DNA of 20,792 bases, taken from assembly GCA_963817525.1 (NCBI GenBank), contig CAWFOU010000005.1, forward strand, positions 1 to 20,792. Reading direction: 5' to 3'. Shown piece after piece: positions 3,788 through 18,687 of this stretch. Under the pieces are notes generated by a model. The model did not search any database and was not told the origin of the DNA. It saw only the letters and a program-made list of their open reading frames with translations. This stretch comes from an uncultured archaeon. Its GTDB lineage: Archaea; Thermoproteota; Nitrososphaeria; Nitrososphaerales; Gagatemarchaeaceae. A program made the position numbers and the translations under genes. The first letter of the stretch is position 1, and each line of letters opens with the position of its first letter.

Positions 3788-4136
3788 TCAGAGACCGCAC
3801 AGGAAACACGTGAGCGCCGAGCCAACAGGGGGCGTCGGGTGCGTCTTGTTGTCGATCTGCGCCTGGAAGCCGTGGAACTGGGCGCACTCGAGCTCGTATG
3901 CGTTCCTGGGGCTGGATATGCTGAACTTGAAGAAAGGATACGGAACCTTGCCCAGTTTGCTCACGAATTCCGCCCAGAGGTCCGTGTCCGACCTCCCGAC
4001 GTACTTGGGTATGAACTCGCCGGAATCATCCTTCGTACCCAAAGCGTAGTTGCCGGACTCGCCGGGCTTGATCGAGCCGATCGATGACCACCGGCTCAAA
4101 CCTGAAGGCGTTTGACTCCATGTAGAGCTTCGGCAT
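3788..4136 (-). CDS. Small GIY-YIG-superfamily-like protein with C-terminal CxxC, one indel near 4073
   Basis: Reconstructed as MPKLYMESNAFRFEPVVIDRL-IKPGESGNYALG...YVGRSDTDL...FKFS...AYELEC..FH...IDNKTHP...CFLC. TATA-like TATAATTA lies about 26 bp upstream of ATG 4136. Confidence 0.65.
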
Positions 4137-4200
4137 TCTTGACGGTGCGTCCCGAGGGTTGTAATTATAGTTGTGGTCACGGGATGGCCGTCCGGCTTCT

Positions 4201-4932
4201 TCAGTCGTCGAGGCTGTCTTCGCCCAGCGCGGAGACCCTTACGTAGTACGGCGCCTCCCCGGAAACCGAGGTCTTGGCGATGAGGCCCTGTGCGACCAGC
4301 TTCTCGCAGGCCGCTTCCACGTCGTCGGGCTCCAGCTCGATGTTGTACCTCTTCTCGATCTCGTTCTCGATCGTGAGCGGGCCCCTCTCCTCGAAGTCTC
4401 CCAGCTGGTGGTAGATGCGGCCCTCAAGCGAGGCCGGGTCCGGCGCCGAAGGCAGCGCGGTGAATTTCTGCGTCCTTTCCTTCAGGCGCAGGATGACCGG
4501 CGCCCAATCGTTCAGGTTCTTCTTCCTGGACCCTCCTGTTATCTGCTGCACGAACTCCGTCTTCCTCTCCCTGCCGGTGTTCCAGGTTATCTCCAGCTTC
4601 GGGTTCTGGCCCATGCGCTTGTGTCCCGTTGCCGAAGTAATCGACTTCAGCTCGATCCAGAGGTTCGCCGGGTCGTTTTTGATGTCATCCAGGTCGTCTG
4701 CGTCCATGAATATGATCGCCTTCGAGCCCGGTGCGAGACCCCCGACGATCGGCAGGTTCTCCTTCGTGTCCCCCCTGGCATAAATGACGCGCTTGTTGGT
4801 CAGGATGAGCGTCCCCTCGCTCTCGGTCTTGGAAGCGTCAAACCCGGCCTCCACGTCCTGCACGAATCCTGCGCCTCGGTTGATCACGCCCTGCTCCTGG
4901 GCAAGTATAGTCTCGTCTGGCAGCTCGGCCAA
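4201..4932 (-). CDS. Hypothetical protein: N-terminal PH/GRAM(GLUE)-like domain plus C-terminal winged helix
   Basis: Intact 243-aa ORF. ETILAQEQGV...EGTLILTNKRVIY is a PH/GRAM-type strand pattern. The C-terminus (RIYHQL...EPDDVEAACEKLVAQGLIAK...YYVR) fits a winged helix. TATA-like TTTTAATA on the minus strand at about 4958-4965. Confidence 0.8.
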   Translation of the reverse strand: MAELPDETILAQEQGVINRGAGFVQDVEAGFDASKTESEGTLILTNKRVIYARGDTKENLPIVGGLAPGSKAIIFMDADDLDDIKNDPANLWIELKSITSATGHKRMGQNPKLEITWNTGRERKTEFVQQITGGSRKKNLNDWAPVILRLKERTQKFTALPSAPDPASLEGRIYHQLGDFEERGPLTIENEIEKRYNIELEPDDVEAACEKLVAQGLIAKTSVSGEAPYYVRVSALGEDSLDD

Positions 4933-5021
4933 AGCTGGCCCCGCATCATCTGGGCCGTATTAAAAGATAGGATGGACTCTCACAGGCCCCGACCTAGTAG
5001 ATTCTTCTCCGATGGTCGTAC

Positions 5022-6779
5022 CTATCCGGAGATTTTCTTGTTCTGGCTACTGTACATCTCCACGATCTCCTTCACGGTCGTGGCGTCCTCGGGCCCTTTC
5101 TCGTCTCTCACCTTGCCGGTAAACTTCGGAAACCTGAGGGCGAGTCCGCTTCCGGGCCTTATGCTGTTGAGGCCGGCGGGATAGTTAGGCGAAAGGGTGA
5201 TCTCGGATGCGATGGTCTCTATCACGATTGCGGGACGATACCACATGTCTGGTACCAGCATCGACTCGACTTTGGGTGGTTTCACTTCGCTTTCGTATGG
5301 TTTCAGCAGCTTCGGCAGCCTCTCGAGGTCCTCATCCGAGAAACCCGTCCCTATCTTGGTGATGGTCGGGAAGACGTCTTTCTTCTTGTCGTAGGCAGCG
5401 AGCAGGTAGGCACCATAGACGCCTGCCCTTCGTCCCCTTCCGTGGAGGGCGCCTACTATTACCAGGTCGATGGTGTCGGTCAGCTCGCTCCGGTACTCCC
5501 TCTTCAGCTTGATCCACGCGAAGCCCGTCGCGCCCGCGATGTAGGCCGCCTTCGGGTCCTTGATCATCAGGCCCTCGCCTCCCTGCGATATCGCCTCCTC
5601 CATATATCGCTCGACCTCCTCTGGGTCGTCCGTCCTCTTCGCCGGGACGAGCCTGGCGTATTCGTTCTCCTCGACGATGGCCTCGAGCTCCTTCCGCCTC
5701 GCGGTGTAGGGCTTCCCGGTGAAGTCGACCCCATCGACGAACATTACGTCGAAGAAGTTGATGGCGACCGGATACTTCTTCATCATCTCGGCGATCCCGT
5801 GCTTCCTCCTCCTGTGCATCAGTTCCTGGAACGGCAGGTATTCACCCGTCACCGTGTTGACGGCGACGACCTCACCCTCCAGGATCGCCTGTTTGGCTTT
5901 CACAAACTTCTTCGCGTATTCCACGACGTCCGGATAGGTGGGAGTGATCAGCTCCAGCCTGCGTGAGAATATCTCGACCTTGGTCCCGTTCTTGTGAATC
6001 TGGGCCCTCTCGCCGTCCAGCTTGTACTCCATGACGACGTCGCCTCCCATCGAATCGAGGATCTCCTTAGCGGTCGGGAGCCTCTCGGCGAGCATCGGCC
6101 GGATGGGCTTCCCTATCTGCACCCTGACCTGCTCGACCCCCTTCAGCCCCTTCTCTGCAGCCAGCTCGACCACGTAGCCGAGGTCCGAGGTTACGTTGTA
6201 GGCCCTCTCCAGCACCTTCCTGTGACTCTTCTCGCCCAGCAGGGCGATCGCGCACACGTCCAGGATGGTATAGTCGGCGACCCCCAGTCTGAGGACACCC
6301 ATCGCCGTCCTCAGGATGTACTTCGCCTCCCTCGGGGTGGCATCCGCGATTATGTTTACGAGCTCCTTGAGCTTCGACTCGAATCGAGCCTTCCCCGCTG
6401 ATGCGGGAGATGTCCATCAGCGTTTCGTAGACCCTCTGCAGGGTCAGCGACTCCGAGACCAGCGCGCCCTGCCGACTCTCTGTGAGGAGCTTCTCTGCGG
6501 CGGTCCCGATGTCTCCGGCCCGGACGTACGCGTCGCTGGACCTGCTCGACGGGCTTTCCCGAAGCTACGTGAAGCACCCTGAGCGCATACTTCTCGGCGA
6601 TGCCTAGCTCGATGCCCTCGTAATCGGGGCGCAGTTTGCCCTGCGTGAGGTAGACGAGCATAGGGAGCTCTGCTTTCGGCGTCTCTTTGAGGAGCTGGGC
6701 GAGTACCTCGGTGATCGCTATCCTTCCCCTGAATCCCTTCGAGCTTCTCGTATGCGTCAACGACGACGGAGAACTTCAA
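5022..6779 (-). CDS. lig: ATP-dependent DNA ligase (archaeal), about three indels in the N-terminal domain
   Basis: Motif I EYKLDGER, RPMLAERL, ILEGEVV, FFDVM, EGLMIK, WIKLKREY, DLVIVGA.HGRGRR, KIGTGFSDE, LRFPKF. N-terminal pieces (MKFSVVVDAYEKLE; YLTQGKLRPDYEGIELGIAEK) are in shifted frames. Confidence 0.97.
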
Positions 6780-6834: not shown

Positions 6835-8365
6835 CTACTCAGGCGGTATCTCTTTGAAGAGCATAGACAGGTCGAGCCCACGCCTTTTGTGATAGCCGTT
6901 TGATACGAGATAGATGACTATCCCCGCGGCGAGGGTGGTCAGGATGTAGCCATAGGCCAGATAGTTCCCTCCCCAGACTCCAGGCGCTGCGAGGAACTCG
7001 TATGAGAGGTACAGGAACGCCGCGGCCATGAGGACGCCCGCCGTTGCCAGGGTCGCCCGCCGCGGCCCTTCTCCTTCCTCAGCCCATAGACCGCCGCGCC
7101 AACGCCAACGAAGAGGAAGTAGACCATGGCGGCGAGCACCGCGCCGTACAGGGACATGACCGTTCCATAAAGGAACGCGGCGAGACCTATCAGCGTGACC
7201 GTCACGACGAGGTCGAAGAGGTGGGCGAAGACGGGCGAGCTCCCACTTCTCGCTGACGTATGCGAACCTGGACGGCAGGAACCTGTCGAATGACTGCGCG
7301 AGTAGGTACCGCGGAGATCGTGATTATCCCGAAGGCCAGGATGGCGACCTCCCACAGGATCCATCCCGCCCCGATGAAGAGCTTCAGGGCGGTCAGCTGG
7401 GTCACTCCCATCGCCAGCGTCCAGAAGTTGAAGCCGGCGTCGTAGACCAGGCTGGCGTTAGACAGGGCCGCGTTGGTGAATCCGAAACCTCCGACGTAGT
7501 ACATGGTGGCGAGCGGGATGGTCACGACCAAGAACGCCAGGACCGCTGAGATCGGCGCGTTCCATGCGATTGTCTTCCTGTCCCTGAGCTCTGAGCCCAC
7601 CGACGCTGACGCGTTGAACCACGGGTAGACGAAGATGGCGAAGAAGGGGAGGACCGAGAGCGTCGCGCCCAGGTCAAAGGTCGAGCCCTGATAGGAGGCC
7701 TGGACCGATAGGAAGGTGACGCCCGACAATCCTAGCCCGTTGACATAGTTCGTGACGCCCCCTCTCCCCGCCTCGAGGAGCGTAACGACAGAGACGACCA
7801 GCGCAACCACACCGACGACCATAAGCGAGGAGATGAGCTTGAACCCTAGCTTCGGCCTGACGATGTTCACGACGATCAGTGCCCCGAAAAGGGACGAGCC
7901 GACGACGAACTGCGAGAGCGGGTTCGCCCCCGCGGCCGCGAGCGCGCTGAACGAACCGTCTCCCAGGGAGGTCCCCACTGACCCTATGGCGAAGACCGCC
8001 GAGAGGGCAATGAGCGCCAGGTAGGGCATCGTCTCCATCGTCATGCCCATGAATGTTATCGCGCTCCCTGTGAATCCTCCGAGAGACCTGGACATCCACA
8101 CGTAGTCTCCCCCCGTCCTGGAGGTGCGCTTGGACATCATCGAGTAGACGACCACCTGGGGTATCGAGATCAGGAAGCCGATGAAGGAAGCGTAGACAAG
8201 GTTGACACCTGAGACGGAAGGGAGGAGGATGACGGTGAAACCGATCAGGGAAAGCGCGGCGCCGGTCGACATATAGCTCACATTCAGCGCGATGGCGTCG
8301 AACAGGGAGACGTTCTTCACCAGACCTGTGGCCTCGCGCGTGAACCCGACCGCCTTCGAGGTCAT
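6835..8365 (-). CDS. APC-family amino acid/polyamine permease, about three indels near the 3' end
   Basis: F.REATGLVK start, RTGGDYVWMSRSL, about 12 hydrophobic segments, reconstructed SRYLLAQSFDRFLP, and the C-terminal G.DL...FKEIPPE typical of archaeal APC permeases. Confidence 0.9.
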
Positions 8366-8414
8366 GTTGACCCTTTTGGAAGCTGCCGGATAAGTGTTGA
8401 GGAGTGCCCAGTGA

Positions 8415-9734
8415 CTAGGCCGTGACCCTGCGGCGTGCAGGGGAAGCTGAAGTCGTCGAGCCACCCTTGATGCTGGACGGTTCCTTGGTCTTGGTGAACC
8501 TCCTCCACACCATTGCGTAGGCGCCGAGCGCGACCAGACCCAGAGGAATCACCACCACGGCCACCTCGATTATCCCTTCGATCACACCGGAGAAGAGGGC
8601 CCACACGGAGCCAGCGAAGCCGGATAGCCCGCTCGTCGCAGGCGGCGCCGTCACCTTGATGATCACCGAGGCCAGGGTGACGTTGCCTGTCTGGTCCGTC
8701 GCGCTCACCGTGACGTTGAAGGTCCCGGCCTGGTTGAACTGGTGGATGAGCTGCTGTCCCTCCGCGGATGTTCCGTCCCCGAAGTTGTAGTTCACAACGT
8801 ACGGACCCACTCCTCCCGTCACTATCGCGTCGAACGTCACGCTGAGCGGGCTCAGGCCGGTTCGCGGCGTCGCTGAGAGCTTCATCGTGAGGGGCGCTGG
8901 GACCGTTGGTTTGGCGGCCGTTTCAAGGGTGACGGCGATCGTCGCATAGTTGACCAGCTGCGCGGTCTGGAGTATCTGGCTCTCTACCGAGTTGATCTGT
9001 GCGTCCGTCTGCTGGAGGATCGACTCGATCTGGATGGTGGAGTTTATGGTGGCAGACTGGTTGAGCAGTTTGAGCAGGGATTCCTGCTCCGTGAGGAGCG
9101 ACCCAAGCGTGGCGTTGAGGTCTTGGTACTGCACTGTCACGTCGTCGCTCGAGCTCTGAAGGTTGACGACGGTGCCGAGAGCCTGGAGCTGCACGATTGC
9201 CGTCTGGAAGTTCTGCGCGGGTACCATGACCGTTATCGATGCCGAGCCGTTCTCCGCAGAGTCATAGCTTGTCGCTGATACGTAGCCGCCCAGCCCCGCC
9301 GCGACCGCGCTGACCTGCTGGATGCTCGCTGACGGATTGGAGACGTCGATCGCGATGTTGCCGAAGAACTCTATGGAGTGCCCCGAACCACTTGTGCTGT
9401 TGGGCGAAGAGACGGAGCTGGATTGCTGGCCGTTGTCCTCGGTTGTGGTGGTTGATGCCGCGATAGTGGCGGTCGAGGACTCGGTCTGGGTGATTCCGGG
9501 TTCCGTCCCGAGGATGACCGTGGAGGGGACCGAATTCCCCGATGGATTCAGACTGCCTATCGCTGCTTGAGAGCCAGCGCCGTATCCCTGCGAATTGTCC
9601 AATGCCGTGGTAGAGGCTGCACTAAACCCCCCTAGCAGCGAGTGCTGGCTGAAGACCGCGGCGCCCACCCCTCCGACTATTATCAGCGCGACCATTACAA
9701 TCATGAACCTGCCTAGAAGCTTTCTCTGTCCCAT
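8415..9734 (-). CDS. Membrane-anchored DUF4349-domain protein with an S/T-rich linker and a PKD domain
   Basis: N-terminal TM and S/T-rich stretch; DUF4349-like GGYVS...ASITVMVPAQNF...LG.V....SSDDVTVQYQDL...QINS.ESQ...V.YATIAVTL; PKD motif P.SVTFDA.VTGG..PY...YNFGDG......HQF.QAGTFNVTVSATD; C-terminal TM and basic tail. Confidence 0.85.
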   Translation of the reverse strand: MGQRKLLGRFMIVMVALIIVGGVGAAVFSQHSLLGGFSAASTTALDNSQGYGAGSQAAIGSLNPSGNSVPSTVILGTEPGITQTESSTATIAASTTTTEDNGQQSSSVSSPNSTSGSGHSIEFFGNIAIDVSNPSASIQQVSAVAAGLGGYVSATSYDSAENGSASITVMVPAQNFQTAIVQLQALGTVVNLQSSSDDVTVQYQDLNATLGSLLTEQESLLKLLNQSATINSTIQIESILQQTDAQINSVESQILQTAQLVNYATIAVTLETAAKPTVPAPLTMKLSATPRTGLSPLSVTFDAIVTGGVGPYVVNYNFGDGTSAEGQQLIHQFNQAGTFNVTVSATDQTGNVTLASVIIKVTAPPATSGLSGFAGSVWALFSGVIEGIIEVAVVVIPLGLVALGAYAMVWRRFTKTKEPSSIKGGSTTSASPARRRVTA

Positions 9735-10718: not shown

Positions 10719-11069
10719 TTGGGCGGAACCAAGAAGAAGACCCTAGCCTCGATGGAAAAGACTCAGAACGAGGAAGGAGAGACTCAGCAGGACGGCAGCA
10801 AGGTCAAGAAGGCGACTAAGGAAGCGAAGCCAGTCGGCGAGAGGAAACGGGTCGAGGTTCTCATGCCCAAGCTTAGCGACCAGGAATTCATGAAGACGCT
10901 CTCTTCACAGAAGGCCATCACGGTCTATTCGGCCGCGAGGACCCTGAACGTCAGCGCATCGATAGCCAGGGTGATACTCGGGACTCTGGAAACGAAGGGC
11001 CTTGTCTCAAGGGTCGGGGGCTTCAGCGGGCACTACGTCTGGGCGCCTGCCTCGATTTCCCGGACCTGA
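10719..11069 (+). CDS. rps25e: 30S ribosomal protein S25e
   Basis: MGG.KKK start, basic N-terminal tail and the wHTH core KAITVYSAARTLNVSASIARVILGTLETKGLV..VGG.SGH.VW. TTG start. Confidence 0.9.
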   Translation: MGGTKKKTLASMEKTQNEEGETQQDGSKVKKATKEAKPVGERKRVEVLMPKLSDQEFMKTLSSQKAITVYSAARTLNVSASIARVILGTLETKGLVSRVGGFSGHYVWAPASISRT

Positions 11070-12079: not shown

Positions 12080-14013
12080 TCAGGGAGCTGCGAGCCCGAC
12101 CGAAGCAAGGAGCTGGTTGAAGCGGGGGTCCTTCCTGACGCCCGCGAAGAGAGGGGAGTACATGAGGTCGGTCGCCGGGAGGTAGTGGCCCTTCGTGGAG
12201 AAGGTCATGTACTCGAAGAACTTGTCGATGTCGCCCAGCGCGAGATAGATGTAACCCGCAAAGATCGACCTTACGTATCCCTGTTCGTGGGTCGCGTCCA
12301 GCTTCGCGATCATCTCCGTCGCCGTCTTCTTGTCTCCCTTGAGCGCGGCGACGAGCCCGCGGTTGAGGTGCGTGAATTCATTTTCGGGCGCAACCCTCTC
12401 CAGCTCCTTCACCATGGCGTCCGCGTTTTCCAGATCGTCCTTGGAGAGGTAATAGTCTGCCATCAGGCGGTACGAGTCGATGGGATCGAGGTGAAGCGTC
12501 CTCTTCCAGTGCTCAAGGGCTTCCCGCTCCCGGCCCGAGTAGAAGTAGGCCGTACCGAGACGCCTTATCGCGCGATGTGAAAGTGGGTCCAGCTGGTAGG
12601 CCATCTCAGCATTGCTCACATACCCCTTCAGGTTGCCCTTCTCGGCTTCGATTGAGCCCAGCACCACGTAGGCATCCGCCAGGTTGGGGTTCAGCTCCAG
12701 TCCCTTCCGCGCCTCCTTCTCCTGAACGGGGAGCGGCTCGTCACCCATGAAGTAGAGCTCAGACAGCAGGAAGTGTGCCTCCGCCAGATCGGCGTTTATC
12801 TCGAGCGCTCTGCCGCGCTGCCGCCATCCCGAGTTCCAGTGTCTCGGACCAGGGGATGAGGCCCATTGTGCCCAGCTGAATGTAACACGTGGCAATGCCG
12901 GTGTACGCCCGTGAGAGGGACGGATCCCGCTGGATCGCCTGCTGGAAGAAGCTCAGCGACTGCCTGAGGGGCCCCTCTTCCCGCTCGTGCATGAGGGCCT
13001 GACCCTGGAGGAAGCTCGTGTAGGCTTCGATGTCCGCGGTCTCCTTTTGCACAGTAACCGGTGGCCGGCCCATCGGAAGGCTCACAGGAATGGACTTGGC
13101 GACGCTGTCAGCGATGTCGGTCTGGATGGCGAAGATGTCGTCAAGGTTCCGAATCGTACTTCTCAGCCCAGAGGTGTTCCTCGGTGTTCACGTCGATGAC
13201 CTGCACCGCGACCCTTATCCTGTTCCCGGCCTTCCTGACACTACCTTCCACGACCGTCCCGACTCCCAGCTCCCTCCCGATCTCCGAGACGTTCTTCTTC
13301 TCATTCTTGTAGTTCATGACGGACGTCCTCGCGATGACCTTGAGGCCCTTCACAAGCGCGAGACTGCCTATCAGCTCCTCGGTCAGTCCGTCGGCGAAGA
13401 ACTCGTCCTGCTGGTCCAGGCTCATGCTCACGAAGGGGAGGACCGCGATCCTGTCTGCGGGGAGGTTCGCGGCTCTCATACTCATGGCCTGAGCTTCCCA
13501 TGGAAGTTCGACCCTGTAAACGTCTATCGGTATCGCCACGTTCTTGAGCTGGTGCGGGGCGAGCTTGATGAGCTTGAAGGGGACCTTGTTCCTGACCTGG
13601 TCGAAGACCTGCTCGGAGATGCAGACCTCACCTCCCTTGGCCAGCGGCTCTATCCTTGATGCGATGTTGACGGCGTCCCCGTAGACGTCCTGGCCGCTCT
13701 GCACCACATCGCCGACGTGGATCCCGACCTTCATCGCTAGTGTGTCGCTGGCCGGTCTGCTGTGGTTGTGGACGGCTTCCTGCATCTCAACAGCGCATTC
13801 GACGGCGGCGAGCGCGCTGTCGAACTGTATCATGAACGCGTCGCCGATGGTCTTTACCTCCCTGCCGCCGTGCTTGGGGAAGATCGGGCGTAGCAGAGCC
13901 TGGTGGCGTTCGAGGAGCTGCAGCGCGAGGGCTTCGTTCCTTTGCGAGAGCGAGGTGTACCCAACGATGTCGGTGAACATGATGGCCGCCAGCCTCCGCT
14001 CCCCTGAGACCAA
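12080..14013 (-). CDS. Class III adenylate/guanylate cyclase with TolB-like domain and TPR repeats, several indels
   Basis: ERRLAAIMFTDIVGYT, VKTIGDA, KVGIHVGDV, DVYGDAVNIASRIE; IAVLPF...FFADGLTEELI..L....LKVIARTS; TPR repeats (ALEINADLAEAH, LELNPNLADAY, LDPLS); end motif P.F.GVRKDPRF. TTG start. Confidence 0.92.
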
Positions 14014-14186
14014 CTGATTCAGAACCAAGGCGGTTTGCAATAAAACCCTTTGGTTATCAGACATCGACTAGTTGTCGAGTACCGAATACATTTGACGTCA
14101 GACCAAATTGGGCCTGGAAAGCATTTTGAAGCAGAGAACCTTTATACAACCGCTTAAAAGGGCGCCTCGTCCTTCGAGGTATTTGT

Positions 14187-14555: not shown

Positions 14556-14913
14556 ATGTCAGCCAAACCAGCAAGGAAACAAGATTCAGCCCCCGCTGCC
14601 GAAGAGGAAGTAGTAGAAGCAGTATCAGAGAGGAGCGGAGCACCACAGAACCACATCTACGTCGGCAAGAAGCCAGTCATGAGCTACGCGATGTCTGCGC
14701 TCATCCAGTTGTCGCAGGCGGGCGAAGTCGTCATAAAGGCCCGAGGTCTTGCAATAGGAAGAGCAGTGGATGTCGCAGAGATAGTGACCAAGAGACTCGG
14801 CAACGGAGCATTCGCAGTGAAGAACATCGCAATCGCGACCGAGCAGGTCAAGAGCGTCGACACAGGCGAGATGAGGAACGTCTCTTCAATACGAGATCCT
14901 CGTCGGCAAGTAA
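14556..14913 (+). CDS. albA: DNA/RNA-binding chromatin protein Alba, with an acidic N-terminal extension
   Basis: IYVGKKPVMSY, EVVIKARG.AIGRAVDVAEIV, RNVSSI. An indel at about 14892 restores the canonical end EILVGK*. Confidence 0.95.
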
Positions 14914-14947
14914 GTAGCGACTAGCCCGGGCATCTGTCGAAGGATAG

Positions 14948-15169: not shown

Positions 15170-16504
15170 TTGCCTGAAACTCGGGCGCATCCGGTCACTA
15201 AGGTCCGGAATCTGACAACACCAAAATTCGACGACCAGGAATTATATAATCTGGCACGAGAAATTTGGCACACCATACTTCCTCATAGACGAGGGAGTGC
15301 TGAGGAAGAACGTAAGCGAAATCGAGCAGGCTTACCAGACGTTCAAAGGACCGTTCAGAGTCGCCTACTCGATCAAGGCGAACTTCAACCCCGCAGTGAT
15401 AAAGACCTTCGTCTCCGAAGGTATCATGTTCGACCTCACGGCGTCAAACGAGCTGTACTTCCTGTTGAGGTGCGGCGGCTCGCCGGAGAACGTGATCTAC
15501 ACCAGCATAACGGAGACGGCGGCAGAGTACGAGAGCGTAATCAAGGGTGGAGTCCGCAAGATAGTAGTCTCGAGCTACAACGGGTTGCTGAACCTGATCG
15601 AGGCTGCGGGCAAGGCGGGCGGACCCGTGAACGTGCTCATCAGGGTCAACCCAGAGGTCCACGTCAAGGCGGAGCTCAGGTTCTCCATAAGCCACGGGAA
15701 GTTCGGCGTCCCGCTCGACTCTGTCAGGCGAGGACAGCGCGATGTTCATGCTGAAGAAGATACTCGACGACTCCGTCGCTGAAGTTCGACGGATTCCACT
15801 TCCACCTGGGGAGCCAGATAGAGGACCCGTCGTGCTACTCTGAGGCGCTGGAGAAGCTCGAGAGCTTCATCCTGGACGCGAGGAGGTCTATCGGCGACTT
15901 CCCGATCAACACGCTCGACATCGGGGGCGGTCTCCCGACATCCTACGGCAAGGGGGTACCGGCGCCCGCGGACTTCTCGGCGACGATACTCGAGCAGCTC
16001 AGCAGCCTCGCCGAGAGCTTCGGAAGCAAGTTCACGCTGATCGTCGAGAGCGGCAGGTACCTGTCCGCCGACTCGACGATAATGGTATCAAGGGTGGTGA
16101 ACGTCAAGAGGTTCGGGGAGAATAAGTACGTCTACCTCGACGCTGGCTACAACAACCTCGCCGACTCTGCGCTGCTCAGGCACGAGTACCCCGTGGAGGT
16201 CGTGCCCGGAGGGAGCACCACCCACCAGAAGACGGTGCTGGTCGGTAGGCTGTGCGATTCGCTGGACGTCTTCACCACCTCCAGCAGGTCCAAGCTGGGA
16301 GGTGCCGAGGTGGGCAAGCTCGTGGTCTTCAGAGGCGTGGGCGCATACTCCATCGTCCTGGCTTCGCCGTTCCACTGTCAGCCCAGGCCATACGTCCACA
16401 TGAGGGACGCGCAGGGCAAGTATCTGGTGGTCAGGAAGGGTCAGAGCGTAGAGGAGCTCTTCGAAGAAGAAGGCGGAGACCCGAGCCTGATGTCACCGGC
16501 CTAG
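15170..16504 (+). CDS. PLP-dependent Orn/DAP/Arg decarboxylase family (fold type III; would usually be annotated lysA), about three indels
   Basis: Reconstructed motifs: FGTPYFLIDE, AYSIKAN (PLP lysine), IRVNP, KFG, GFHFHLGSQI, LDIGGG, IVESGRYL, GRLCDSLD, VGAYS. Confidence 0.92.
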
Positions 16505-17114: not shown

Positions 17115-18347
17115 TCAGCTCAGCGACATGGCTGTCGCGAGGACGTCCGCCCCTCGCAGCACCCCCAGCGACCCGGCCGCCGCGTCCGACTCTGTGAACC
17201 TGCAGCAGTCCGGGTCGCGGTGCTTCGTCGTGATCAGCAACGGCACGGGGTCGCTCGAGTGCATCTTGAGGGCGGATGGCGTCGAGTGGTCGCAAGAAAC
17301 GGAAAGCCTCGCGTCCCTGGTCCGCTCGGAGACCTTCCCGAAGAAGACCTCGTCGATGGTCTCTATGTTCCCCTTCTTCCCGGCCGCGTCGCCGTCGTGT
17401 CCGAATTCGTCAGGACCCTTTATGTGGGCGTAGACGACAGTTCCCTCTGCCATCTCCTGGTTGAAGAGCCCGGCCTTCCTAGCCAGGTCGCGGTGGTCGG
17501 TAAGCATCACTTCCTTCATCCCCAGAAGCCTAGCGATTCCTATCTCGGCCGGCATTTCGACCAGCGCAACGCCCTTCATGCCGTACTTCTCCCTGAAAGG
17601 CGTGACGACCGGCAGGTGATCGCCGGCGTCCCTGAGAAGAAGTAGGTTGGCAGGCTTCTTGCCTTCCCTCCTGCGGACGGCGTTGACCTGTGCGTCTTCG
17701 AGCGCCTTGGAAGCGCCATCTAGGAACTCGTTCACGAGCTCGGCAGCCCTCCTCGAGGCTGGGCTTCGATCAGCGGCTTGCATCGCTGGATCTTCTCAGC
17801 TCCCTTGACCTCCCTCGCAGCCCCAAAACCCCTGGTGCGGACGTAGGCGGGGTCTGTGTTAGAAACCTCGGCGGAGAGTCTTCTCTCTCCCCTTATCACC
17901 AGCACACCTCGGTAGCCCACCGTGCTCCTGAACTCGAACTGGGCCCCTCTCAGCTTCGTGTCGTTGATGACGCCTTCGAGAGCCTTCGCTTCTTTCTCGG
18001 TCAGGTCCCTGCCCGCCCGTCTGTCCGCGATGAACCCGTCTTTGGATGTGGCGAAGTTGGCCCTCAGGGCGAGCTCGCCGTCTTTGAACTTGAGACCCGC
18101 TCCGATGGACTCCACCACTCCCCTGCCCGGGTAACCACTCGCGAACGAGTAGCCGAGCATGTTGAAGACCGCTATGTCTGACTCGGGCGCGATTCCCTCG
18201 CCGACCGTGATCGACGGTGCCCATCTTGCTCCTCCTTGCTATCGGGTCCAGGTTGGGCGTGTTGGCCGCCTCGAGCGGCGTGGTGAAGTTGAGAGAGGGG
18301 TTGGGCCTGTCTCCGCATCCGTCGAGGAGCACGTAACCGAACTTCAA
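17115..18347 (-). CDS. apgM: 2,3-bisphosphoglycerate-independent phosphoglycerate mutase (archaeal), several indels
   Basis: LLDGCGDRP...TPLEAANTPNLD, ESDIAVFNMLGY (catalytic Ser), GRGVVESIG, RANFAT, DRRAGR, HIKGPDEFGHDGD, DHSTP...HSSDPVP. Confidence 0.95.
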
Positions 18348-18419
18348 GTGATTGCCCCTGGGACTTTGATCATGGGTTATTATCCTTAATTGTGAAATCC
18401 TCGCGAACGCCTCCAGGCC

Positions 18420-18687
18420 ATGGACGGCGCGTCCAGACCGGCAGTTCCCGGAGGCTATAAGCCGCCAGCGGGTCCGAATCTTCATGTCGCGGAAGAGCGG
18501 TGAAGAATATCTCTCCCTTCTGGAGTCGTGGGTGGTGGCCAGCGGGCAGTCCGCAGCCGATCTTCGCTTTCTTCACAGCCTACCTGCTCTTTTGAAGCGT
18601 ACCGGTCCGGGAGCGTCGGAGACGTCCCCTGCCGGAACGCGTCACATCCGCTATCCTCGGAGAAACGATATATCCGAACCCCGATGA
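18420..18687 (+). CDS. Possible small hypothetical protein
   Basis: The frame of ORF 18484-18687 extends upstream (PDRQFPEAISRQRVRIFMSRKSGEEYLSLLESWVV...). It could join ATG 18420 through one indel. TATA-like CTTAATT lies about 30 bp upstream. Confidence 0.35.

Follow-up and report, generated by a model that had tools for sequence, protein, structure and literature searches.

A conserved archaeal protein family that joins a PH domain to an acidic winged helix

Gene, fold and family

The window analysed here is a stretch of 20,792 nucleotides (nt) of contig CAWFOU010000005.1 in assembly GCA_963817525.1, from an uncultured archaeon of the Gagatemarchaeaceae (Nitrososphaerales), and its subject is a minus-strand gene, here called PH-wH, that encodes a PH domain followed by a winged helix. 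[quoted passage not shown] The ORF was borne out by the ORF list and its translation, with 243 amino acids (aa) read from 4932 to 4201 on the minus strand from a TTG start codon, and its parts are as follows.

4201..4932, minus strand: whole PH-wH ORF, 243 aa from a TTG start (4932) to a TGA stop (4201-4203)
4480..4911, minus strand: PH domain, residues 8-151, a beta-sandwich with capping helix 140-151 (AlphaFold2)
4783..4821, minus strand: beta2-beta3 hairpin EGTLILTNKRVIY, residues 38-50 (Pfam match and alignment conservation)
4504..4530, minus strand: basic motif SRKKNLNDW leading into the capping helix, residues 135-143 (alignment conservation and charge count)
4429..4479, minus strand: linker, residues 152-168, 17 residues with no predicted helix; P164 invariant
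4237..4428, minus strand: single acidic winged helix, residues 169-232 (AlphaFold2)
4204..4236, minus strand: acidic C-terminal tail, residues 233-243 (alignment; mean tail charge -2.2)

PH domains are marked by a seven-stranded beta-sandwich that is closed by a C-terminal helix with a conserved tryptophan. An AlphaFold2 model made on an alignment of 45 family members (mean predicted local distance difference test score, pLDDT, 89.9; predicted template modelling score, pTM, 0.85) has this fold in its N-terminal half, with strands at residues 9-23, 38-45, 48-53, 56-61, 70-75, 91-94, 98-104, 112-118 and 122-129 and a capping helix whose tryptophan, W143, is invariant in the alignment. Within the hairpin EGTLILTNKRVIY, the sole stretch recognised by the Pfam Vps36, bPH_3 and GRAM models, G40, L42, L44 and T45 are invariant and R48 nearly so, and in the SRKKNLNDW motif 98-100% of members have a basic residue at R136, K137 and K138, and L140, D142 and W143 never vary. 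The C-terminal half is modelled as a winged helix with helices at 169-179, 185-196 and 202-215 and wing strands at 218-221 and 229-232, followed by a tail with the consensus S-P-L-G-x-D-D-L-S (VSALGEDSLDD in the window), in which S234 is invariant and P235, G237 and L241 are nearly invariant. The division of the protein into a PH-like half of the GLUE/GRAM kind and a winged-helix half, as originally proposed, is thus upheld by the model and, for the PH half, by the fold searches described below; so are the caveats attached to it, namely that the winged helix is single, that a long helical linker is lacking and that the window holds no ESCRT gene.

The gene is real and conserved among soil thaumarchaea. 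A word-indexed protein search returned 78 homologues at E <= 0.001 (213-280 aa, 36-74% identity, 85-100% query coverage), of which the named entries are all labelled hypothetical, and an exhaustive HMMER scan of 1.84 billion cluster representatives (50% clustering) returned 73 proteins at E <= 0.001, with 23 at E <= 1e-30. The family alignment consists of 45 of the 78 homologues, hand-picked for identity spread with near-duplicates and short fragments excluded; 18 of its columns are invariant, and column identity averages 47%. No NCBIfam family matched the protein at E <= 10, and the ESM Atlas gave its own cluster a score of 0.95 and otherwise low-score leads (wHTH-PRTase_assc 0.78, CheF 0.77). 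A pattern scan with one genome per species located 33 loci besides the window, which by their record titles belong to Nitrososphaerota/Thaumarchaeota (20), Bathyarchaeia (5), unspecified archaea (7) and a Methylomirabilota metagenome-assembled genome (1).

In a family tree of 41 rows, from which three loci with ORFs shorter than 200 aa and one copy of the present assembly (on contig C13) were omitted, the window copy groups with loci L001-L003, L005, L006 and L019 (support 93/64 and 91/84). The assembly carries four family copies, these being the window copy, C1:1057880, C1:545984 and the C13 copy, the last 99% identical to C1:545984; both copies on contig C1 sit in a clade other than the window's. 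Overall, carriers have 1 to 4 copies each and belong to Bathyarchaeia or to one of two Nitrososphaerales families. The copy from the record labelled Candidatus Methylomirabilota bacterium (L014) is full-length and groups with the Bathyarchaeia copies (support 99/91); because it clusters among them, its contig is probably archaeal and mis-binned.

Relatives with other architectures also occur (families of the order are given f numbers here, f1 being the genome's own). An N-terminal zinc ribbon was found in 4 of 24 distant representatives, and the one tested with hhalign aligned to the family profile across both domains (probability 99.5%, E 1.3e-22). Two such genes, of 277 and 308 aa, were found in f55 genomes, and the zinc-ribbon forms make up a clade of their own, starred in the tree. 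Proteins of 163 aa with a PH domain only, in f2 genomes, share the hairpin with the family and also keep the D-W found in its capping helix. These forms constitute a zinc-ribbon sister subfamily and distant PH-only relatives in other families of Nitrososphaerales. No longer fused forms were seen among proteins of 491-2000 aa at E <= 1e-5, which is weak evidence for their absence. A zinc-ribbon neighbour in Bathyarchaeia loci (L016:4699-5382) was considered as a paralogue and rejected (hhalign probability 0.1%).

Comparison with Vps36 and other PH proteins

The original prediction cited four colinear blocks as matching human VPS36. Pfam Vps36_ESCRT-II (PF11605) scores the window protein at 18.6 bits over residues 35-59 only, against a gathering cut-off of 24.1, which none of the 45 family members reached, while bPH_3 gives a sub-threshold match at E 0.1. 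At E <= 1, Vps36_ESCRT-II matches 39/45 members, bPH_3 9/45 and GRAM 8/45, and the best member scores all lie below the models' own cut-offs. The Vps36 model scores barely higher than those of generic PH families (best 23.5 bits vs 19.9 for bPH_3 and 19.4 for GRAM), which goes most of the way towards what the original prediction had itself said would refute it. Run against the six-frame translation of the genome, the Vps36 model picks up each of the four family copies, with scores of 14-18 bits; E. coli, B. subtilis and L. lactis likewise yield matches to it at E <= 1.

The EAP30 model (PF04157), which stands for the C-terminal part of such proteins, does not match PH-wH at E <= 10. In a six-frame search of the genome (E <= 1) it gave two sub-threshold matches, at 15.5 and 11.7 bits and neither at the PH-wH ORF, one of the weak matches being the winged helix of the ribosomal protein eS25 gene in the window contig; no Vps22- or Vps25-type partner was seen in the genome with this model, and no search was made with the Vps25 model. 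A phmmer search with residues 1-158 against all PDB chain sequences returned nothing at E <= 10, and the 45-sequence profile found no Vps36 or other PH chain there at E <= 10, its weak matches being to winged helices alone (E 0.06-0.25); human EAP45 was present in the searched set, as shown by the Foldseek match 2hth. The four blocks were not reproduced by either PDB search. The second alone of them (EGTLILTNKRVIY) has a weak, sub-threshold counterpart in PF11605, and the C-terminal block has none, given the lack of an EAP30 match.

By fold, Foldseek ranked KETc7, a Taenia antigen (8ujw, E 1.8e-5), first, and a literature search on the fold of this protein returned nothing; below it came the yeast Vps36 GLUE domain (2cay, rank 2, E 3.1e-4), the human EAP45 GLUE domain (2hth, E 1.3e-3), MTMR6 and BBS5, as well as PH modules of FACT/Spt16 and Rtt106 (E 5e-3 to 2e-2). 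The GLUE domain of Vps36 is one of several near-equal matches, together with TFIIH p62, the GRAM domain of myotubularin and BBS5, and Vps36 was not among the best 50 rows when these were ranked by VIA Z. The N-terminal module, as modelled, is a PH domain of the GRAM/GLUE/TFIIH-p62 structural class, within which it may or may not be closer to GLUE than to the others.

Set beside known proteins, PH-wH resembles Vps36/EAP45 (PF11605; 2cay, 2hth) in having an N-terminal PH domain of the same class and then a winged-helix fold, and its sister subfamily adds a zinc ribbon, just as yeast Vps36 has zinc fingers according to excerpts of PMC10936438. It differs in having one winged helix rather than two, no preceding helical domain and no EAP30 signal; in the AlphaFold2 model, tandem winged helices and a helical domain before them are absent, there being one winged helix behind the helix-free 17-residue linker. 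The PH-GRAM, TFIIH p62 and BBS5 domains (MTMR2 1lw3/1zvr, 7bul, 6vbu) are 15-19% identical to PH-wH, but they are eukaryotic and have other partner domains, none being fused to a winged helix. The bPH_3 domain (PF14470) has a prokaryotic PH fold and weak matches in 9/45 members (best 19.9 bits), but every match falls below its 23-bit cut-off, and the best fold matches listed include no bPH structure. The Asgard protein Znr_PH_CC_SB, compared by its description in excerpts of PMC10936438, combines archaeal zinc ribbons with a PH domain that is expected to bind membranes, and the zinc-ribbon subfamily of PH-wH starts alike; Znr_PH_CC_SB also has a coiled coil and a steadiness box and lies in ESCRT loci; PH-wH has a winged helix and is not located in such loci. 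Winged-helix regulators of the MarR, PadR, Fur and RosR type have the C-terminal fold in common with PH-wH but differ in their basic or polar recognition helix.

PH-wH lacks the defining features of Vps36/ESCRT-II on which the tests gave a clear answer, and in our reading it is not an ESCRT-II member. The ESCRT-II-like, Vps36-related adaptor of the original prediction finds no support, with 0/45 members past PF11605, no EAP30 match and no tandem winged helix. A search of open-access papers and bioRxiv found no paper on a Nitrososphaerota protein of PH plus winged helix or on a Vps36-like protein outside Asgard archaea. To our knowledge, eukaryote-like PH domains of the GRAM/GLUE class have rarely been described in archaea other than Asgard.

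Neighbourhoods, the Cdv system and possible function

Charge is distributed unevenly over the protein. Over residues 165-243 the net charge averages -10.0 in the 45 members (range -14 to -4), and the recognition helix is negative in 45/45 members (mean -3.4, range -6 to -2), while the conserved basic residues (R19, R48, R136-K138 and K151) all lie in the PH half. The mean net charge of -10 makes DNA binding by the winged helix unlikely, and its composition suggests that it probably binds protein instead. The original prediction had named DNA binding by the winged helix as evidence that would count against it; on this point it emerges intact, the winged helix being strongly acidic and probably protein-binding. 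Canonical PH domains have a basic phosphoinositide motif between strands beta1 and beta2, in the loop; classical PH domains are not known to bind phosphoinositides where the capping helix is entered. The corresponding loop of PH-wH, residues 24-37, is acidic and modelled at low confidence (pLDDT under 50 at 29-31), and no canonical basic motif was found in it.

For the neighbourhoods, ORFs of at least 70 aa were called in the window and the 33 other loci, clustered by BLASTP, and mapped for five genes on each side. Any one neighbour cluster is common to 10 of the 34 loci at most. Annotated with Pfam, the recurrent neighbours in the window's clade are DNA ligase, amino-acid permease and NfeD; a second clade, where opposite-strand genes flank PH-wH on both sides, has cytidylyltransferase, riboflavin kinase, translin and Hjc; a third has GH38 mannosidase, MFS transporter and glycosyltransferase; and Bathyarchaeia have thermosome, PNPOx and M20 peptidase. 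PH-wH is thus a stand-alone gene in several different neighbourhoods. Snf7, Vps4, MIT and CdvA are absent from the Pfam annotation of the recurrent neighbours, and no Cdv gene lies within 6 kb of PH-wH in any of the 34 loci, so that the neighbourhood check suggested by the original prediction yields no gene-order tie to ESCRT-III/Vps4.

The genome itself has a Cdv system, five CdvB paralogues being found with the NCBIfam CdvB models. Because these models find them, Snf7 (PF03357), which has no match in the genome, is judged insensitive here. CdvA was found neither with NF041007 or PF18822 at E <= 0.01 nor in a tblastn search (E <= 1e-3) whose eight CdvA queries included four from the same genus. 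The PH-wH copies lie more than 130 kb from the Cdv locus or on other contigs.

C1:682-686 kb: Cdv locus of the genome, with a 215-aa CdvB1/B2-like protein, a 307-aa CdvB and a 793-aa CdvC-like ATPase

Its CdvC-like ATPase (C1:682239-684620, minus strand, 793 aa) has an MIT domain at residues 12-74, an AAA domain from 562 and, at its end, Vps4_C. MIT and AAA are separated by about 480 residues, making the protein roughly twice the usual length, and the NCBIfam CdvC model matches it in three stretches; an insertion, whether an intein or other, is possible. The 307-aa CdvB (C1:684617-685540, minus strand; model pLDDT 68.8) ends in three short helices at residues 250-292 that resemble a winged helix.

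Presence was then compared in a sample of 301 genomes of the order, in which PF18822 scores above its cut-off in 192; the counts include unpublished genomes in f55 (12/13, G397), f62 (71/73, G517) and f2 (72/73, G528).

Full-length PH-wH: f1 31/74, f55 12/13
Weak PH-only matches to PH-wH, E 1e-6 to 1e-8: f2 24/73, f62 2/73, f52 4/9, f57 3/11
CdvA (PF18822): f1 27/74, f55 0/13, f2 72/73, f62 71/73
CdvB C-terminal tail (68 aa, single query): f1 61/74, f55 1/13, f2 0/73, f62 0/73, f61 7/15, f66 5/6

Among the 74 f1 genomes, 16 have PH-wH and CdvA, 15 PH-wH only, 11 CdvA only and 32 neither; these are raw counts given without a statistic, as related genomes are not independent. PH-wH presence is therefore not complementary to CdvA in f1, and it does not track CdvA or CdvB, so the ESCRT-II-like reading lacks a link both in gene order and in CdvA complementarity within the genome's own family. 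PF18822 likewise finds no CdvA in f52 (0/9) and f59 (0/10), as in f55, but nearly always does in f2 and f62; some Nitrososphaerales may recruit CdvB without a recognisable CdvA. The winged-helix-like tail of CdvB (residues 245-300) occurs in 61/74 f1 genomes and in 0/73 of each of the two largest families, and the statement that thaumarchaeal CdvB has no fused winged helix, which appears in the excerpted text of Makarova et al. 2024 (PMC10936438), may not be valid for the whole order.

On balance, and with moderate confidence, we read PH-wH as a soluble two-module adaptor of an undescribed archaeal family outside ESCRT-II. With its conserved basic residues (R19, R48, R136-K137-K138 and K151) the PH module would recognise a ligand of negative charge, be it the head group of a lipid or a peptide that is acidic or phosphorylated; the acidic winged helix and tail would dock on a basic protein partner; and the two halves might mask each other until ligand is bound. 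Several points weigh against this reading. The mechanism is drawn from fold, charge and conservation. Lipid binding is uncertain, because the conserved RKK sits at the entry to the capping helix, away from the classical phosphoinositide site. The Vps36_ESCRT-II signal in 39/45 members and the second rank of 2cay in Foldseek leave room for a specific GLUE kinship, and the f55 pattern, in which PH-wH is present in 12/13 genomes and CdvA in 0/13, would fit a substitute for CdvA, albeit in one lineage.

That pattern leads to the idea of a membrane adaptor linked to ESCRT, which we hold to be unlikely: the PH domain would anchor the protein to the membrane and the winged helix or tail would recruit CdvB or the MIT domain of CdvC, much as ESCRT-II does, or as CdvA would in lineages that lack it. 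Besides the f55 counts, it draws on the GLUE-like matches 2cay and 2hth, on Vps36_ESCRT-II being the commonest weak Pfam match, on an acidic winged helix that fits protein binding over DNA binding, on a Cdv locus with two CdvB paralogues and CdvC in a genome where CdvA was not found, and on excerpts of Makarova et al. 2024 (PMC10936438), in which ESCRT-III is proposed to have had a winged-helix protein as its ancestral partner. For this reading alone CdvA (PF18822), which recruits CdvB to the membrane in TACK archaea, is a fitting likeness, being small and cytoplasmic and a possible bridge between membrane and ESCRT-III, but CdvA consists of a PRC barrel and a coiled coil (excerpts of PMC10936438), PF18822 does not match the PH-wH ORF, and the two co-occur in 16/74 f1 genomes. 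Cdv genes are also lacking around all 34 loci and the genome's own copies are remote from its Cdv locus; the four-way f1 counts (16/15/11/32 of 74) are not complementary; the winged-helix tail of CdvB is found in 61/74 f1 but 1/13 f55 genomes and so does not follow PH-wH; the gene is absent from many near-complete genomes of the family, which would be odd for a core division factor; and EAP30 does not match. The C-terminal tail of PH-wH, compared by eye with the CdvA tails of related genomes, shows no resemblance to them. The C-terminal peptide of CdvA is said to bind the winged helix of Sulfolobus CdvB, reportedly in work by Samson et al. of 2011. A bolder form of the idea, that PH-wH is the missing free-standing winged-helix partner of ESCRT-III in thaumarchaea without CdvA and a candidate relic of the pairing of PH domain and winged helix from which Vps36 arose, appears to us decidedly improbable; there, a GLUE-class PH domain would anchor the protein to the membrane and the winged helix would bind protein, giving a recruiter outside Asgard archaea that is ESCRT-II-like or CdvA-like.

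A different function, in which PH-wH would serve nucleic-acid enzymes or basic proteins of chromatin as a scaffold or acidic chaperone (compare FACT, Rtt106 and TFIIH p62) and would hold basic DNA-binding proteins or bridge repair enzymes, is also unlikely in our judgement. In the window's clade the gene directly upstream encodes an ATP-dependent DNA ligase and the one downstream is the small conserved ORF, the second clade has translin and Hjc, a resolvase, as neighbours, and the C-terminal charge of -10 would suit such a role; yet the neighbours vary by clade and mostly lie on the opposite strand, with operon evidence for the small downstream ORF only, and the FACT/Spt16 and Rtt106 modules that Foldseek lists rank under many unrelated PH domains. 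Least of all do we expect a ligand-sensing transcription regulator, in which the PH-like domain would sense a small molecule and the winged helix bind DNA, a very unlikely reading despite weak MarR_2 matches in 8/45 members (Pfam; best E 0.0064) and weak matches of the family profile to RosR chains in the PDB (E 0.22-0.25). The recognition helix is negative throughout the family, the domain carries the mean charge given above, no MarR_2 match or other regulator family passes its Pfam cut-off, and the mapped loci show no conserved divergent target gene. As to a ubiquitin-type connection, the E2 enzyme family PF00179 was not found in the genome, by a search that was silent in every control genome too.

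Returning to the two-module adaptor, a family that is conserved and multi-copy in soil Nitrososphaerales and in Bathyarchaeia, and whose relatives include zinc-ribbon and PH-only forms, strengthens the argument that the fold and its use in adaptors predate eukaryotes. It also advises caution in tracing ESCRT evolution, as a domain order like that of Vps36 can form from common building blocks without an ESCRT tie. Were the link to CdvB true after all, PH-wH would fill a gap recognised in the excerpted text of PMC10936438, that of a winged-helix partner of thaumarchaeal ESCRT-III.

Read support and other features of the window

Contigs made from the short reads of four DNA runs of one soil study cover the PH-wH ORF at 4193-4685 and 4748-4914 with 0 differences and 0 gaps, leaving 4686-4747 and 4915-4932 uncovered. 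Just outside the ORF they differ from the window by single-base insertions or deletions (indels) at 4074, 5525/5529, 6382, 6537 and 6732, each position in the contigs of 1 to 3 of the four runs. Because the read contigs differ outside the ORF and agree inside it, the window contig carries assembly indels, and the PH-wH gene is unaffected where it could be checked. Two features adjoin the gene.

4958..4965, minus strand: TATA-like TTTTAATA, read by eye, some 29 nt upstream of the start codon
3788..4180, minus strand: small co-directional ORF, 20 nt downstream of PH-wH, about 115 aa in relatives

As read from the sequence, TTTTAATA is a possible promoter of the gene's own that would give a leaderless transcript; the sequencing runs listed as carrying this DNA include none of RNA. 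The small ORF is kept in 6/7 loci of the window's clade (for example L002:6765-7112 and L005:6782-7129), and its N-terminus in the window is probably frame-shifted by the assembly indel at 4074. It has no Pfam match at E <= 5, ends in C-x-x-C-G and contains a G-N-Y...G-R-S-D stretch, which to the eye is reminiscent of GIY-YIG nucleases. The DNA ligase of the window is in two pieces, of 426 aa (5022-6302) and 134 aa (6356-6760), compared with 584-605 aa in relatives. Since the read contigs show single-base indels there and the relatives are full length, the split and the odd N-terminus of the small ORF are probably assembly errors rather than signs of pseudogenes.

The assembly comprises 15 contigs that total 2.82 Mb and is rated as 95% complete and 8.75% contaminated. 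The window contig (C5) is colinear with C1:407946-417082 and 442406-444337 of the same assembly at 69-75% DNA identity, and the counterpart region on C1 has an intact 605-aa ligase and no adjoining PH-wH gene. At that level of contamination, fragments of a second, related organism may be present in the bin. Other genes of the window that look truncated are a permease (7202-8464), a C-terminal piece of a decarboxylase (16082-16504) and a piece of a metalloenzyme (17859-18485), and ordinary ones include those for a protein with an adenylate/guanylate cyclase domain (13141-14064, minus strand), Alba (14556-14924, plus strand) and eS25 (10719-11069, plus strand).

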